Shown: positions 7,903-30,633, counted from the stretch's first letter. The stretch is DNA of 32,000 nucleotides from Candidatus Electronema halotolerans (GCA_942493095.1 OW818675.1:930001-962000), one strand, 5' to 3'. Numbers and translations: made by a program. Notes: generated by a model from the sequence alone, not told the origin.

Positions 7903-8945
7903 TCCTTCTCTCCTGAAAAGTTGATAATCTTGTTGATTTCCAGCACTCGCTGGCCGATGTCTTCCGCGCCAATGATTTCTGTGACCAAGCAGACGGTCTT
8001 TGCCCCTTTGGCCAGCACTTGGGGCAGATTGTCCCGCTTGATGCCGCCAATGGCGACAAAGGGAATTGCTGCATTCCTGACTGCCCAGTCCAAATACGCC
8101 AGGCCGACCGGGGCGCAGACATCCTCCTTGGTCTGGGTGCTGAAGATCGGCCCAACCCCGATATAGTCCGCGCCATCTTCAACAGCCTGCTGCGCCTGCT
8201 CCGGGCTGTGGGTTGAGCAGCCAAGGAGCATGTCCGGGGCAATCTTGCGCAGCTCACGGATGGGCAGGTCGTCCTGGCCTTGGTGGATGCCGTCCGCGCC
8301 GACCATCAGGGCAATGTCGGCATAATCGTTGATGATGAAGGGAATGCCCGCATCCTGCGTGATTTGGCGGATGGCAGCGCATTCCTCATACATGGCGCGG
8401 ATGCTCTTGTCCTTCAGCTTTTCCCGGTACTGCATGACCGCAACTCCGCCCTCTGCCATCTGCCGGGCCACTTCCACGTTGCTGCGGCCAAGTGAGAACT
8501 TCTCGCCCAGTATCCCGTAGATGCCCGCAGGCAAGGTGCGGCGGAAGAGCGGCAGGAAGCGGGACTCCAGTTCATAGACGGCAAAACGGAGCTGCTCAAC
8601 CTGCTTGCCCGCCTGATACTCACCCTGCGCCTTGAGCACTTCCTCCAAGACACGGGCCGCCTCCTGCACCCGCTTGCAATTGGCTTGGACTGTGTCGCGC
8701 AGGCCGCTGCGCTGATCAGCAGAATCTTGATTGGAAGTAATCCTGCCAACATCTTCGCCAGCAGCACGGGCAGCGAGCAAAGCCATTTCCCGGCCCTTGA
8801 ACAGCTCGCGCAAGAAATGGCGCAGCTTGCGCAGTTCAGCGGAAAGCTGCTGGTTGTCGAAATGAAAGCGGGCAATGTCCTCCAGCACCCGCAGCCCTTC
8901 AGCGGCCCGGTTGCAGTTTGCATCAAGCAGTCGTGATTCGTTCAT
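7899..8945 (-). CDS. thiE: Thiamine-phosphate synthase ThiE with an N-terminal ~130-aa ThiD2-like extension
   Basis: The C-terminal ~210 aa are typical TMP-TENI/ThiE (GIYGILGEKF..., VMQYREK, IINDYADIALMVGADGIHQGQDDL, GVGPIFSTQTK). The N-terminal LDANCNRAAEGLRVLEDIARF motif is the extension seen on some ThiE proteins. Translationally coupled to thiC. Confidence 0.85.
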   Translation of the reverse strand: MNESRLLDANCNRAAEGLRVLEDIARFHFDNQQLSAELRKLRHFLRELFKGREMALLAARAAGEDVGRITSNQDSADQRSGLRDTVQANCKRVQEAARVLEEVLKAQGEYQAGKQVEQLRFAVYELESRFLPLFRRTLPAGIYGILGEKFSLGRSNVEVARQMAEGGVAVMQYREKLKDKSIRAMYEECAAIRQITQDAGIPFIINDYADIALMVGADGIHQGQDDLPIRELRKIAPDMLLGCSTHSPEQAQQAVEDGADYIGVGPIFSTQTKEDVCAPVGLAYLDWAVRNAAIPFVAIGGIKRDNLPQVLAKGAKTVCLVTEIIGAEDIGQRVLEINKIINFSGEKE

Positions 8946-26085: not shown

Positions 26086-27153
26086 ATGGCGCGTTTGAAA
26101 CTCCCTGACCTTGCCGTCAGCACCGGCATCGTTCTTGGTGCGGGGGCAGTGGTTCTGACTCTGCTCGGCAATCCGACCAATTCCGGCATTTGCATCTCCT
26201 GTTTTTTGGAGAATTTGGCTGGCTCGCTCCAGATGCACGACAGCCTGCGCATGAGTTATGTCAGGCCGGAACTGCTCGGTTTTTTGCTCGGCTCCTTTGT
26301 CACTGCCAAGAAGATGCGCCGCTTCCGGGTCACGGGCGGCTCATCGCCGCTGATCCGCTTTTTGCTCGGCTTGTTCATGATCGTCGGCTGCGGCATTTTT
26401 ATTGGCTGTCCGATCAAAATGATTTTGCGCTTGGCCGCAGGCGACCTGACCGCAATTGCCGCCCTGCTCGGCCTGATGTTTGGCATCTGGCTGGGAGGCC
26501 GCTACATCCGGGCTGGTTCCGTGTTGGATCGGGATAAGGAGCTGCCGCAAATCAACGGCTACATTTTGCCCGGCATTGGCCTGCTCTTGCTGCTTTTTGT
26601 TCTGCTCAAACCGAGCTTTATTGTCCAAGGAGCCACTGGCCCAGGGGCGCAACATGCCAATCTCTGGATTTCGTTAGCTGTTGGGCTGCTGATCGGCGGC
26701 ATGGCCCAGCGTTCTGGTCTCTGCATCACTGGCGGCCTGCGCAACTTCTTTCTTTTCAAAGAGAAAACCCTGCTCTGGGGCATTGTTGCCGCCTTTGCAT
26801 CAGCCTTTTTTGTCTCTCTGATCAGCGGTCAATTCAATCTTGGTTTTTACGATCAGCCGGGTGCGCATCCTGACAATCTGTGGACGTTTCTGGCCATGGT
26901 GCTGGTCGGTTTGGCCGCAGTGATTGTTGATGGCTGCCCGTTCCGCCAGCTCATCAAGGCGGGACAGGGTGATGTGGACGCAGGACTGACCTGCTTTGGC
27001 ATGTTGACCGGCGCGGCGTTTGTGGTAAGCTGGCAGCTCCGCAGCACTTCTGCCGGGCCGGAATTCAACGGCAAGATTGCCACGCTGGCCGGACTGATCT
27101 TCTGTCTGACTGTGGTGCTGGCGTATCGCAGGAAATCTGCGGCAGCACGGTGA
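26086..27153 (+). CDS. yedE: YedE-family putative selenium/sulfur-compound transport membrane protein
   Basis: 355 aa and polytopic, with YedE-family Cys motifs (NSGICISCFLENLAG, RSGLCITGGLRNF, VDGCPFRQL). The ATG follows the upstream stop with no gap. Confidence 0.8.
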   Translation: MARLKLPDLAVSTGIVLGAGAVVLTLLGNPTNSGICISCFLENLAGSLQMHDSLRMSYVRPELLGFLLGSFVTAKKMRRFRVTGGSSPLIRFLLGLFMIVGCGIFIGCPIKMILRLAAGDLTAIAALLGLMFGIWLGGRYIRAGSVLDRDKELPQINGYILPGIGLLLLLFVLLKPSFIVQGATGPGAQHANLWISLAVGLLIGGMAQRSGLCITGGLRNFFLFKEKTLLWGIVAAFASAFFVSLISGQFNLGFYDQPGAHPDNLWTFLAMVLVGLAAVIVDGCPFRQLIKAGQGDVDAGLTCFGMLTGAAFVVSWQLRSTSAGPEFNGKIATLAGLIFCLTVVLAYRRKSAAAR

Positions 27154-27261
27154 AGTTGACTATGCGGTGGACTTCACAAATTCATCTGTTCAACACCCGC
27201 CTTTGTGATGGTGATAGCAAAAGGCGACTTCAATTCTTCACCACATTACATTGAGTAAATT

Positions 27262-27468
27262 ATGAGTACAGGTACAGTGAAGTGGTTTAATGCGGACAAA
27301 GGCTTTGGGTTTATTACTCCAGACGACGGAGGTAAAGACCTGTTTGTCCATCACTCAGAAATCAAGACTGGCGGCGGTTATGCCACGCTCAACGATGGCC
27401 AGAAGGTTGAGTTTGAAGCAGGGCAGGGTAAAAAAGGGCCATGTGCAAATAATGTCAGATCGTTGTAA
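27262..27468 (+). CDS. csp: Cold-shock protein (CspA family)
   Basis: [34 protein letters not shown] carries RNP1 (KGFGFI) and RNP2 (LFVHH). Length 68 aa. GC is lower than the flanking core genes. Confidence 0.95.
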
Positions 27469-27563
27469 TCCGGCGGCATAAGCACATATCCGGCAATCAA
27501 GCCGAGCAGTTAATAGAGGCGCGTTTGCTGCGCACATTGCAACGCGCAGCTTTAATCTTATAC

Positions 27564-27608
27564 CGTTAAGAGTGGTGATCGTTTTGCGCCCACTCTTAAC
27601 GATTTTTT
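27564..27608 (+). terminator. Rho-independent terminator after csp
   Basis: 12-bp perfect stem cgttaagagtgg (27564-27575) / ccactcttaacg (27590-27601), 14-nt loop, then a-tttttt. A smaller hairpin gctgcgc/gcgcagc at 27527-27550 precedes it. Confidence 0.8.
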
Positions 27609-27769
27609 GCAAGCAATGAGTTATTTTTTTAGGCTCTCCGAGTTTTTCTGTGGTTGACAAAATCGGGTGGTGCCCCTGTTGAGTGTTGCTGTCTCGAAAA
27701 TTATGTGATACCGATTGGTTAGCATTACTGAGACAACTACTCCGTAAAGTGAGTTGTGGATTCAACTCG

Positions 27770-27927
27770 CAAGTGCAACTTTTTTTGGTTATCCAAAAAG
27801 CATAGGTTGGCTGGCACTTTGAATACTTCATGTAAATTTTCAATTATTTTCTCTTAGTTAGCGACAAAAGCAAAGTTGTGACACTCCCGTAACTGCCTTT
27901 TCTTGCAACCAAAAAAAGTTGCACTTG
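27770..27927. repeat. 158-bp AT-rich element bounded by 21-bp perfect inverted repeats (MITE-like or long cruciform)
   Basis: caagtgcaactttttttggtt (27770-27790) is the exact reverse complement of aaccaaaaaaagttgcacttg (27907-27927). Weaker complementarity (about 8/12) continues ~11 nt outward. No ORF is credible inside it. It lies 22 nt upstream of the yedE remnant. Confidence 0.85.
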
Positions 27928-27948
27928 GAACTTGAATTCACCGTTTGA

Positions 27949-28062
27949 ATGCTGACCAGCGCGGCCTTTGTCGTGAGCTGGCAGCTCCGCAGTAGCTCCG
28001 GTCGCCGGACCGGAGTTCAACGACAGAATTTTCACTCTGGTTGGGCTGATTGCGTCTCATTA
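27949..28062 (+). pseudogene. yedE: Frameshifted, truncated duplicate of the yedE 3' end
   Basis: Aligns by hand to 27001-27112: 39/44 identical over the first 44 nt and about three quarters overall. It translates as MLTSAAFVVSWQLRSS, then after a 4-nt insertion as AGPEFNDRIFTLVGLI. Intact yedE reads MLTGAAFVVSWQLRSTSAGPEFNGKIATLAGLI. The last ~14 yedE codons are missing. Confidence 0.8.
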
Positions 28063-28069
28063 TAACGAA

Positions 28070-28726
28070 ATGATCCAGATCGATATATTTTGTAGACAGT
28101 GTCAAAAAAATCATCATCAACTTGTGAATGAAAAAGAGTCAATTTCAATACAATGCGAATCTTGTGGAGCTGCGCTTGCATCTATTTCTCCAATTAACGG
28201 ATATGTATACATTCTATCGAATCCATGTATGCCAAATTTAGTCAAGATAGGGTTTACTACACGAAATATTTACGAAAGGATTTCTGAACTTAATTCTTCA
28301 AGCGGCATACCTGAACCTTTTGTGATTGAAGCTGCTTTTTGTAGTATCAACCCTAAAAAGGATGAACAAATAATCCATGCTGAATTAGATAAAAATCGTA
28401 CTAATAGAAATCGTGAGTTTTTTCAATTTGAACCGCTTGATGCAATTGATAAAATAGTAAAAATACTTGAAAAGCAACCTGATTATATTGGGACGAACAG
28501 CATGGTTAACTGTGAAAGACTTCTTCAGAGAAAAAAAGAAGAAGAAAGAATTTTTAAGAAGAAACAGAATTATTTTTTATCTCAAGGCATATTTGCAGAA
28601 GACCCAGGAAGATCAGTTGCTATGTATTCATTTAAATGTATTGGATGTAAAAATAGATTTTATTCCAAATATCCTAAAAACAATAGAACTGCTTGCCCTT
28701 TCTGCTTTTCTTGTGAAATTGAATGA
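28070..28726 (+). CDS. T5orf172/MUG113 (GIY-YIG-like) domain protein flanked by N- and C-terminal zinc ribbons
   Basis: GYVYILSNPCMPNLVKIGFTTRNIYERISELNSS...PFVIEAAF...IIHAELDKNRTNRNREFFQF fits the T5orf172 pattern. The N-terminal zinc ribbon is CRQC...CESC and the C-terminal one is CIGC...CPFC. GC is ~30% (18/60 in a sampled stretch) against ~55-60% in the flanks. Confidence 0.75.
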   Translation: MIQIDIFCRQCQKNHHQLVNEKESISIQCESCGAALASISPINGYVYILSNPCMPNLVKIGFTTRNIYERISELNSSSGIPEPFVIEAAFCSINPKKDEQIIHAELDKNRTNRNREFFQFEPLDAIDKIVKILEKQPDYIGTNSMVNCERLLQRKKEEERIFKKKQNYFLSQGIFAEDPGRSVAMYSFKCIGCKNRFYSKYPKNNRTACPFCFSCEIE

Positions 28727-28863
28727 AAAAATTATGAAATATATTAACTGGATTAAAACATAGCGTTGTTTTTAAAACATGATTTGGACGGCATGCCGCT
28801 TCATGAAATTCCGCACAAGATCATTTATCTGTGCCCTAAATATGTGGACAAAATACAATCATC

Positions 28864-29409
28864 ATGAACTGGTTCAAAAAAAAGGAAAAGCCGCAGGAGC
28901 CGGAAAAGGAAGAGGTCACACGCGGCCTGCTGATCTTTGCTCACCCGACCACAGTCATCGCGGTGGAGGAACTGCTCAAGGACGAGGGATATAAAATTCG
29001 GGTGGTCAGTCCGCCGCCTGCCTACCGCACCGGCTGCGACTTGAGCGTGGAATTTCCGCTGGAAGCGGAAGCCGCCATCACTGAGCTGCTCAATGCAGTC
29101 AAGCTGCATCCGCTTGATGTGGTGCCGATCACCTCGGAAGGCATGGAGCCGCTTCAGTTTGTCCGCAAAAAATGGTATGGCAAATACCTGATGGTCCGGG
29201 CGGCCAACATGAAGATCACCGTAGATACAGAGACCAAGGTCATTGTCAATATCTCTGGCGGCGGCTGCCCGGACGTGCCCTATCTTGCCACGACCATGAT
29301 CGGTAAGCGGCTTGACGAGGCTCCTGCCCCGGACGAAGTCGGCTTCTCCCTTTGCGCCTATTCCCTCAACACTGCCCGGGAAGAGATGATCCGGGAAATC
29401 GGAGCATAA
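28864..29409 (+). CDS. DUF3343 (putative Se/S carrier-like) domain fused to an unidentified ~90-aa C-terminal domain with a GGGCPDVP motif
   Basis: Residues ~20-85 (GLLIFAHPTTVIAVEELLKDEGYKIRVVSPPPAYRTGCDLSVEFPLEAEAAITELL) match the DUF3343 layout, including its conserved Cys. The C-terminal half (KWYGKYLMVRAANMKITVD...NISGGGCPDVPYLATTMIGKRL) is not recognised. Confidence 0.6.
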   Translation: MNWFKKKEKPQEPEKEEVTRGLLIFAHPTTVIAVEELLKDEGYKIRVVSPPPAYRTGCDLSVEFPLEAEAAITELLNAVKLHPLDVVPITSEGMEPLQFVRKKWYGKYLMVRAANMKITVDTETKVIVNISGGGCPDVPYLATTMIGKRLDEAPAPDEVGFSLCAYSLNTAREEMIREIGA

Positions 29410-29411
29410 TC

Positions 29412-30281
29412 ATGCTGTTGTTAGTTGGTGCGGTTCCTGCTGACCGCCTCCCCCTGATCATCGGCCCGGTCTCGCTCACTGACCGGGGCATCAAGATTGA
29501 CGGTCATGAGCTGCCCATCAACCGGGGCAATGAGGCCATGATGAAGGCTGCCTGCCTGATCTGCCAGGAATACGGCGTGGAGCCGCCGGTCGGCATGGTG
29601 GCAGGCGACATTGGCAAGCGCGAAGGCAGCGAGGCAATTTACAAGCACTTGGCCGAGCATCTGCCGACGATGGGGGTCAAGGTGATGACCCTGCATTATG
29701 TGATGCCTGATCTCAAGCTGAATAAGAAGGTGCTGGCCACGGTCGAGACCATGAAGGAAAGCAGGCCTGCTCTGATTGCCGACGCGGGCAGCATGTATGT
29801 GGCCAAGGCGGGCGGCGATGCCAAAATGTACGATGTTTTCACCCCGGACATTGGCGAGGCCACCTTTCTGGCTGATGAGAAGGCCGATCATCCCGCCTAC
29901 ACACGCGGTTTCATCTTCAACATGGAAGATGACGTGCCGGAGCTGATCCGCCGGGCATACATGGGCGGCAACGCGCCCAAGACCATGTTTGTCAAAGGGG
30001 CAGTGGATTATGTCTGCCAAGACGGCGAGATTGTTGACACCATTGCCGAGCCGAGCATTGAGACGATGGAGCCGATTGGCGGCACGGGTGATTTGATCAC
30101 CGGCATGATCAGCGGCCTGATGCACGCTGGCCGCAGTCCGCTCTTAGCCTGCCGCATTGCCGGACGGGTCAACCGGGCTGCTGGCGAGCTGGCCAATCCG
30201 ACCCCGGCCACGCAGGTGGAGGAAATCCTCCGCTGCCTGCCCAAAGCTCTTGCCAAGGTGGAAAAGGAGCTGGGGCTGTGA
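29412..30281 (+). CDS. Stand-alone YjeF_C-like (ribokinase-fold, NAD(P)HX dehydratase-type) protein
   Basis: VFTPDIGEATFLA and EPIGGTGDLITGMISGLMHAG resemble the TPHxGE and GxGDxLxG motifs of YjeF C-terminal domains. ATG 29412 lies 2 nt after the upstream stop. The track start 29352 overlaps the previous gene. Confidence 0.55.
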   Translation: MLLLVGAVPADRLPLIIGPVSLTDRGIKIDGHELPINRGNEAMMKAACLICQEYGVEPPVGMVAGDIGKREGSEAIYKHLAEHLPTMGVKVMTLHYVMPDLKLNKKVLATVETMKESRPALIADAGSMYVAKAGGDAKMYDVFTPDIGEATFLADEKADHPAYTRGFIFNMEDDVPELIRRAYMGGNAPKTMFVKGAVDYVCQDGEIVDTIAEPSIETMEPIGGTGDLITGMISGLMHAGRSPLLACRIAGRVNRAAGELANPTPATQVEEILRCLPKALAKVEKELGL

Positions 30282-30469
30282 GCCGGATGCAGTTCACTGC
30301 TGTGGTCGAATATTGCAAAGACATAGGTCTCTATGTGGGCTATATGCCGCAGTTTCCCGATGCGCACTCGCAAGGGGAAACGCTTGATGAACTGAACCGG
30401 CTGCTTGAAGACGGAGAGCCTTCGTTCAGTTCTGAGTTTGTCGGCACCCAGCAGATTGCCATAGCGTGA
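30278..30469 (+). CDS. hicB: HicB-family (UPF0150-like) antitoxin
   Basis: FTAVVEYCKDIGLYVGYMPQFPDAHSQGETLDELNRLLED fits small HicB antitoxins. GTG 30278 lies 8 nt after AGGAG and overlaps the upstream stop. ATG 30287 is an alternative start. Confidence 0.65.
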   Translation: MSRMQFTAVVEYCKDIGLYVGYMPQFPDAHSQGETLDELNRLLEDGEPSFSSEFVGTQQIAIA

Positions 30470-30633
30470 AGGGAAATATGCCTGCCCTTTCGCACAAGCA
30501 GTTCCGCCACGCTGACGGACGGGCAACCACCGTTCCGTTGCATCAAGGAAGAGACATTTCTCCGATTCTCCTGCGGCAGCTTGCACAAGACATCAGCATC
30601 TCGGTTGAAGAGCTGCTCAATGCAGGAGCCTGA
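30466..30633 (+). pseudogene. hicA: N-terminally shortened HicA-family toxin remnant (51-55 codons, below the track cutoff)
   Basis: Hand translation gives (VKGN)MPALSHKQFRHADGRATTVPLHQGRDISPILLRQLAQDISISVEELLNAGA. This matches the HicA C-terminal core (GSHxxFxHPDGRxxTVPxHxGRDI...). About 15 N-terminal residues before the SH motif appear to be missing. GTG 30466 overlaps the hicB stop. Confidence 0.5.

Follow-up and report, generated by a model that had tools for sequence, protein, structure and literature searches.

Genes and features of the locus

The subject of this analysis is a window of 32,000 nucleotides (nt) from the genome of the cable bacterium Candidatus Electronema halotolerans, for which a closed genome has been published (PMC10030654), and in particular the interval between yedE and the DUF3343 gene that follows it, where a second, degraded copy of the yedE 3' end lies in AT-rich DNA. 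All coordinates count from the start of the window. The intact yedE (26086 to 27153, plus strand) encodes a putative selenium transporter of the YedE family of 355 amino acids (aa), with the Pfam Sulf_transp domain and a match to NCBIfam TIGR04112 (seleno_YedE) over residues 11 to 344, whose 396.6 bits pass the curated equivalog threshold of 200; its product is 84 to 96% identical to those of relatives within Ca. Electronema. On the other side of the interval, the DUF3343 gene (28864 to 29409, plus strand), encoding a putative Se-S carrier (Pfam Se_S_carrier, E value 1.4e-16), is followed by a Carb_kinase-like gene (29412 to 30281, plus strand; Pfam PF01256, E value 3.8e-11), which always comes after DUF3343, with synteny in more than 40 loci. 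The association of yedE and DUF3343 with selenium utilization is documented (PMC5322559). In what follows, yedE is the left and DUF3343 the right anchor of the interval.

Between the anchors we found a csp gene with two hairpins, an inverted repeat with a perfect 21-bp core, the yedE fragment, and an AT-rich gene for a T5orf172 protein, as a first-pass annotation, made from the sequence alone, had listed them. The genes on the anchor sides have a GC content of 0.57 to 0.60, in contrast to the AT-rich islet, and the remainder of the window consists of ordinary core genes (mutS, thiC, lpxK, lpxC, fbp, pepA). The same annotation had noticed no integrase or transposase, and a domain search of the genes of the whole 32-kb window likewise returned none. 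For comparison, 79 loci were fetched around YedE relatives, with their neighboring genes mapped; loci are cited below by number.

A displaced and decaying copy of the yedE 3' end

The stretch at 27001 to 27098 (plus strand), which falls within yedE codons ~306 to 338, recurs in the same orientation at 27949 to 28050. In the local alignment, 80 of 98 positions are identical (82%), with three small gaps that leave the downstream copy 4 nt longer, and the score of 89 lies about 35 standard deviations above that of 500 shuffles (16.8 +/- 2.1, maximum 26), which rules out chance similarity of the two copies. The repeat finder extended the first ungapped block to 26996 to 27044 and 27944 to 27992 (42/49, 86%). 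The hand alignment of the first-pass annotation, with 39/44 identities at its start and a 4-nt insertion, is borne out by these figures, and the similarity that it had reported is significant; its right-hand end needs correction, since the similarity fades at ~28050 to 28058 rather than at 28062, so that the last ~16 of the 355 codons, not ~14, are missing.

Alignment and two-frame translation define the downstream copy as a pseudogene fragment (27944 to 28058, plus strand) that spans codons ~304 to 339, is truncated at both ends, and is frameshifted: YedE residues 306 to 322 and 323 to 338 are read in two different frames. Compared with ten functional Electronema copies, the fragment shows 13 private substitutions, distributed 4/5/4 over the codon positions, in addition to the 4-nt insertion, and 9 of the 13 change a first or second codon position at which all ten agree. 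Over the same stretch, third positions account for 19 of the 22 private changes in the functional copies. Furthermore, the fragment retains a native-like GC content (0.583) amid surroundings of 0.32 to 0.40 and is 76 to 81% identical to Electronema copies, versus 58 to 66% to those of Electrothrix and other Desulfobulbaceae.

As judged from its sequence, the downstream copy is a dead, displaced, and decaying end of the resident yedE, as first proposed, which evolves without coding constraint and has no predicted function. Either age or a foreign replacement end had been offered for the divergence, which measures ~20%. Because the substitutions are unconstrained, the GC content is native, the fragment groups with Electronema, and yedE is not a mosaic, the divergence is best read as the decay of a displaced resident end. 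The idea of a foreign functional end was rejected, as the sliding identity of the functional yedE against seven relatives has no mosaic break.

The islet is a composite of modules

The DNA between the yedE stop codon and the DUF3343 start codon had been regarded as foreign, and we confirmed that it is lineage specific, as homology to other Electronema loci stops at 27126 to 27157 and resumes at 28847 to 28864. The further assumption of a single inserted element did not hold. L152 and L002 also have the csp module, and L082 a remnant of it; the T5orf172 module recurs in L082 to L085, and the segments 27623 to 27943 and 28730 to 28852 are unique, a pattern that identifies the islet as at least three stacked modules that differ in age.

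The csp module (27154 to 27622, plus strand), delimited by homology and the CSD match (Pfam, E value 5e-28), comprises an AT-rich leader, csp itself (27262 to 27468), a short GC hairpin (27527 to 27550), and a terminator, that is, a 12-bp perfect hairpin (27564 to 27601) followed by ATTTTTT, with the T-run ending at 27610. It is contiguous with yedE in L152 (90% identity, up to 27622) and L002 (82%, up to 27608), and the 3' half of its terminator persists in L082 (z 8.8), which makes the module old and shared within a subclade; L153 and nine further Electronema loci lack it. A search of plasmid DNA matched only generic csp genes. The candidate role of csp as a retron Se72-type effector was rejected, given 49 bits against a cut-off of 82 and no reverse transcriptase. 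A consensus promoter and terminator scan gave no excess over the shuffled expectation and overlooked the obvious csp hairpin because its loop measures 14 nt; in the region 26900 to 29000, Rfam returned only a subthreshold match to an internal ribosome entry site (E value 0.95). The terminator now stands between yedE and DUF3343. Across the genus, the predicted selenium operon is physically split and probably split transcriptionally as well.

The following 321 nt (27623 to 27943; GC ~0.40) have no homology in relatives and hold the inverted repeat, whose 35-nt arms (27756 to 27790 and 27907 to 27941; 2 matches versus 0 expected) are separated by 116 nt and contain the perfect 21-bp core (27770 to 27790 and 27907 to 27927). 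Only 2 nt separate the right arm from the yedE fragment. The region 27756 to 27941 folds at -59.6 kcal/mol (z -4.1), with no Rfam match and no obvious target-site duplication. A multicopy miniature inverted-repeat transposable element (MITE) was dismissed, as neither the window nor the 91 loci scanned for it contain a second copy; the repeat could be a MITE, a by-product of the junction, or an RNA gene. The segment bears no likeness to yedE or to the yedE fragment of L002, and a hidden remnant in 27600 to 27950 linking to that fragment, which starts at codon ~234, was excluded (z < 1 on the plus strand). Two independent short-read (Logan) contigs, L080 and L081 (ERR9670067, ERR9669565), match the window at 100% and both end at 27657, 35 nt into the unique segment; their common end could stem from heterogeneity among strains or from faulty assembly of the AT-rich, inverted-repeat stretch.

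At the right end of the islet lies an AT-rich spacer unique to this genome (28730 to 28863; GC 0.321), in the place where L082 to L085 carry DUF6557, with or without UPF0175, between T5orf172 and DUF3343; homology with L082 stops at 28729 and restarts at 28853.

The T5orf172 gene and the possibility of a homing endonuclease

The T5orf172 module (28059 to 28729, plus strand) contains a gene at 28070 to 28726 (GC 0.318) for a protein of 218 aa, with a CxxC..CxxC pair at either end and a T5orf172/GIY-YIG-type domain at residues 44 to 132, which is recognized by Pfam T5orf172 (61.3 bits against a cut-off of 20) and MUG113 (54.5 against 22.3). The PADLOC profile PDC-S57, a candidate defense family, also matches (E value 4.6e-29), at profile positions 5 to 120 of 212 only, which correspond to the nuclease domain. 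Among the residues invariant across 12 homologues are G44, Y47, K59-I-G61, R65, R70, E73, and E116; the conservation of G44, Y47, K59, R65, R70, and E116 is compatible with a possible nuclease or homing activity. No relative was found by sequence in the PDB. The AlphaFold model is confident, with a mean predicted local distance difference test (pLDDT) score of 86, and its top Foldseek matches in the PDB are Slx1 GIY-YIG nucleases and UPF0213, at nonsignificant values (E value 0.1 to 1.1, probability at most 0.91, template modeling score ~0.3).

The module is 87% identical at the DNA level to that of L082 to L085, at the same site, where the flanking DUF3343 and Carb_kinase-like genes are 92 to 93% identical to those of the window, and in L082 to L084 the gene starts 24 nt past the stop codon of a yedE-end fragment (codons ~326 to 355). 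Within this lineage, T5orf172 at the hotspot thus looks vertically inherited, while homologues of 61 to 68% identity in unrelated and partly mobile contexts indicate that the gene family moves. The gene had been taken as part of the insertion that duplicated the yedE end, but it lies outside the pair of repeats and therefore was not delivered by the event that made the duplication.

A phage T5orf172 gene that comes with a zinc-finger DNA-binding domain is considered a homing endonuclease gene and a marker of exchange boundaries (PMC10448857). It is possible to hypothesize that the present T5orf172 protein acts as a GIY-YIG endonuclease of the homing type, which would cut the conserved yedE end or the cargo-free junction, with templated repair driving insertions and imprecise duplications. 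In favor of this explanation are the standing of T5orf172 as a subfamily of GIY-YIG, the behavior of the phage genes with CxxC zinc fingers beside conserved genes, the CxxC pairs at both ends together with the invariant residues, the position immediately behind a yedE end in two lineages, and the Slx1 nucleases as best fold matches. The gene occurs, however, only in the window and the L082 to L085 lineage, and orphan ends and turnover of the interval are also seen where it is lacking (L002, L005, L008, L153, L154); moreover, the nuclease fold matches are not significant (E value 0.1 to 0.5), and the protein also matches a candidate defense family, PDC-S57. Since the gene looks vertically inherited at one site and turnover proceeds in lineages without it, we consider this explanation quite unlikely, and very unlikely in the stricter form of an active hotspot in which repair of the cut chromosome copies cassettes in. 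If true, the nuclease genes that phages carry at exchange boundaries would have a counterpart on a bacterial chromosome, and the position of the yedE breakpoints in the last third of the gene, described below, would be explained.

The resemblance to the free-standing phage homing genes (PMC10448857) and to PDC-S57 lies in the domain, above threshold, in the flanking zinc-ribbon-like CxxC pairs, and in the location, which is intergenic, next to a conserved gene, and at an exchange boundary. Different from the phage genes, the present one is chromosomal and bacterial, and its identity to them is at most 49% and confined to residues 43 to 147. A weak repeat (28104 to 28136 and 28852 to 28884), considered as a remnant of the DUF3343 5' end within T5orf172, was rejected (z 3.1), as the residues are native to T5orf172 homologues elsewhere. 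In L096, a homologue of 50 to 53% identity is seemingly split (133 to 549 and 2621 to 2815) by ~2 kb of inserted DNA; the upstream region of L093 proved to be an inverted-duplication artifact at a contig end.

A hotspot between yedE and DUF3343 in Ca. Electronema

The first-pass annotation had predicted that a relative would show yedE directly followed by DUF3343. Such an empty site is indeed present in seven distant Desulfobulbales (L023, L024, L025, L028, L035, L040, L041), with a spacer of 28 to 58 nt, and not within Electronema. In the 12 Electronema-type loci with a full interval, by contrast, the same place holds 0.9 to 2.5 kb of AT-rich cargo, with a gene content that is different in each: UPF0175 and DUF3368 (L001); csp with HamC/DUF3223 (E value 8e-64) and a pair of 79- and 138-aa open reading frames (ORFs) (L002); a 289-aa ORF (L003); a 276-aa ORF (L004); PIN with an 85-aa and a 322-aa ORF (L005); the 79/138-aa pair with other partners (L006, L008, L053); an antitoxin-like ORF only (L007); a 205-aa ORF, GmrSD_N, and an 80-aa/PIN pair (L153); a putative restriction gene with an N6_N4 methyltransferase (L154); and csp followed by a restriction-modification pair similar to that of L154 (L152). 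This cargo is rich in toxin-antitoxin (TA) and anti-phage types, namely, UPF0175 with DUF3368, PIN, VapB-like, HamC/DUF3223, PDC-S57-like T5orf172, GmrSD_N, and N6_N4 methyltransferase pairs, and it includes nondefense genes as well, such as csp and a methyltransferase of unknown role.

The limits of the variable region are sharp. On the left, the YedE copies agree up to the residues AYRRK, while their last 3 to 8 residues already differ; on the right, homology begins 0 to 2 nt ahead of the DUF3343 ATG. The close relative L153 (TPR protein 88% and DUF3343 98% identical) carries wholly different cargo and no scar, with homology breaking at 27142 and 28864, as would be expected from crossovers in both flanking genes that exchange the cargo cleanly. 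From the comparison of these loci, the yedE-DUF3343 interval is a hypervariable accessory-gene hotspot in Ca. Electronema, of the core-gene-flanked TA/defense type, a kind of hotspot that is already well known in other bacteria.

The YedE tail past AYRRK varies in almost every Electronema genome: in the window (27139 to 27153) and at the ends in L001 to L008 and L053, it reads SAAAR, VTAQR, TVAQQ, AASYTG, QVRG, IIDR, VRRSSED, and others. The TIGR04112 profile match stops at residue 344. As the tail is in some genomes encoded by AT-rich cargo DNA, cargo exchange rewrites the C terminus of the transporter again and again.

Other observations concern the surroundings of the site. A second small variable islet, 1.4 kb downstream, consists of a HicB/HicA pair (30278 to 30633) between the Carb_kinase-like and a DAGK-like gene; the close relatives L082, L085, and L153 have a spacer of 12 to 30 nt in place of the pair, which is present in L002, L004, and L053, with HicB only in L005. 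L006 and L007 are two contigs of one Ca. Electronema sp. TJ assembly and represent two versions of the interval, with different cargo and YedE tails, which suggests coexisting strains or filaments that differ at the hotspot. In the marine Ca. Electrothrix (L009 to L015, L021, L057), TPR-yedE is kept, and neither DUF3343 nor the Carb_kinase-like gene is found within 6 kb downstream, so that the linkage is broken. In some other Desulfobacterota (L048, L050, L051), the interval contains a gene for an MFS-like membrane protein of ~400 aa, with ~3 kb more in L051; the site takes nondefense cargo outside the cable bacteria too.

Orphan gene ends and a proposed mechanism of cargo turnover

Orphan yedE ends, in direct orientation behind an intact yedE, occur in four other loci. 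In L002, the orphan starts from codon ~234, has internal deletions, and directly follows the csp terminator, whereas those of L005 (codons 307 to 355), L008 (codons 324 to 355), and L082 (codons ~326 to 355) retain their own stop codons. With the window included, the 5' breakpoints fall at codons ~234, ~304, ~307, ~324, and ~326, with no common crossover core. L005 and L008 share a module made of an 85- to 87-aa ORF and the orphan, past which their sequences differ, and their orphan tails are more like the working YedE tails found in other strains than like the one in the same genome. Moreover, L002 presents the mirror image on the right flank, an orphan of 60 nt (8547 to 8606) corresponding to nt 11 to 70 of the DUF3343 5' end (55/60 identical, z 31), which lies upstream of the TA-like pair of 79 and 138 aa adjoining the intact DUF3343.

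Local tandem duplication of the 3' part of yedE within this genome, followed by divergence and by insertion of csp and other DNA between the copies, would account for direct repeats 0.95 kb apart, as slipped or unequal recombination can yield nearby direct repeats, and for the clear Electronema character of the orphan in terms of identity. Yet the sequences past the two copies are unrelated, and in L082 the orphan stop codon is followed by T5orf172, not by csp; such orphans recur with other partners in other genomes and on the opposite flank, and the tails in L005 and L008 are closer to those of other strains than to their own. We regard this origin as most unlikely.

Integrating elements classically leave AT-rich DNA flanked by a direct repeat of the 3' end of a gene, and the first-pass annotation had read the locus by that pattern. 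Under this explanation, the islet would be a degenerate site-specific integrative island, whose element carried the replacement end as attP and later lost its integrase, with the two copies as attL and attR. The repeat itself was confirmed, and distant T5orf172 homologues (61%) in L086 and L087 adjoin two tyrosine-recombinase genes and IS66. Nevertheless, domain searches found no tyrosine or serine recombinase in the islet, the 32-kb window, or ~15 Electronema-type loci, and no mobility gene at any examined Electronema locus carrying hotspot cargo. The breakpoints of the orphans vary among the five loci; the ancestral duplicate, to judge from the L002 fragment, probably measured ~120 codons, much more than an att core; the repeats do not bracket all of the foreign DNA, given that the T5orf172 module and the spacer up to 28863 lie beyond the second repeat; and L002 carries the mirror-image DUF3343 duplicate. 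The pattern of a 3'-end-integrating element does not fit these data, and an integrative island appears unlikely.

In our interpretation, to which we assign a probability of about 0.68, the duplicate is a recombination scar in the yedE-DUF3343 hotspot, produced by flank-anchored cargo turnover with an occasional illegitimate second join. Cargo would turn over by homologous recombination, with the conserved flanking genes as anchors, and crossovers in both flanks would result in a clean swap. Now and then, one end of the incoming DNA would pair homologously while the other joins illegitimately inside the resident flanking gene, a step that resembles homology-facilitated illegitimate recombination; the same product would arise if circular DNA with a partial yedE end entered by a single crossover. 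The working gene end would then come from the incoming DNA, and the resident end would be pushed inward as an orphan, where it decays. We favor flank-anchored recombination over a site-specific integrase because the breakpoints are variable, the duplicates are long, both flanks bear scars, clean swaps occur, and no recombinase is found, and we infer that it also explains the lack of an integrase most simply. The same displacement model has been proposed for type VI secretion system (T6SS) effector-immunity modules and orphan Rhs 3' ends (PMC5361080).

For the window, the history may have comprised three steps. The T5orf172 cassette would have stood directly after the stop codon of the then-functional yedE; the csp module would have arrived with its own yedE end, displacing the old end together with T5orf172; and later deletions and insertions would have trimmed the orphan to codons ~304 to 339 and brought in the 321-nt segment with the inverted repeat. 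The ancestral state predicted by this order, with T5orf172 directly behind an intact yedE, was not found, two metagenome scans giving nothing or only distant homologues elsewhere.

Several points weigh against flank-anchored turnover or its proposed course. Scans of genomes and metagenomes recovered no donor allele that would show microhomology at the illegitimate junctions, and a route of DNA uptake in cable bacteria, by natural transformation or otherwise, is not documented here. No Electronema genome has an empty site, and the insertions are accordingly deduced by comparing loci, not from genomes sampled on either side of the event. Between the window and L082, the orphans differ at ~10 of 40 overlapping positions and begin at different codons, although the adjoining T5orf172 genes are 87% identical, which makes the proposed order of events insecure, since separate events or gene conversion may account for the difference. 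Finally, the five detectable yedE breakpoints all fall within the final third of the gene, a clustering that could hint at a targeted break; survivorship explains it too, as yedE must stay intact.

Relation to known systems

Like the defense-island hotspots of E. coli (PMC10121019) and the core defense hotspots of P. aeruginosa (PMC10250203), the Electronema interval is a fixed site between conserved genes with strain-variable TA and anti-phage cargo, which is AT rich and has no integrase or transposase in the islet. Different from these, the islets are very small (0.9 to 2.5 kb), belong to uncultured cable bacteria, lie between selenium genes that are otherwise operon neighbors, and keep orphan ends of both flanking genes as scars.

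The T6SS effector-immunity arrays of V. cholerae and the orphan C-terminal modules of Rhs and contact-dependent inhibition (CDI) systems (PMC5361080) show the same layout: behind an intact gene come copies of its 3' end that are truncated on the 5' side, and the gene downstream differs from copy to copy. The newest module is nearest the intact gene, and no integrase is involved. However, yedE encodes a transporter and not a polymorphic toxin, the payload is an unrelated neighboring gene, and the opposite flank shows the same process. The yedE end being conserved rather than variable, the orphans would carry no alternative function and simply decay.

With integrase-mediated islands in the 3' ends of tRNA or protein genes, the locus has in common the direct repeat of the target 3' end, the reconstituted working end, and the AT-rich foreign insert, but it differs from them in having neither a recombinase nor a fixed crossover point, in its long and diverged duplicate, and in the foreign DNA that lies partly outside the repeats.

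Implications

The interval offers a clear, small case of the turnover of accessory and defense genes at a fixed chromosomal site without an integrase. As both flanking genes carry scars, the order of arrival may be read from them. Furthermore, the interval holds a candidate defense nuclease, the predicted T5orf172 protein, and the split of the yedE-DUF3343 operon matters for inferring selenium metabolism from gene adjacency. For cable bacteria, which as yet can be neither kept in pure culture nor engineered, the hotspot represents a naturally permissive insertion site that tolerates 1 to 2.5 kb of foreign DNA in every lineage and could be of use for strain typing or as a candidate landing site. 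These findings leave current concepts unchanged, and their interest, which is moderate, lies in a tidy record of integrase-free cargo turnover and of a permissive site in cable-bacterial genomes.

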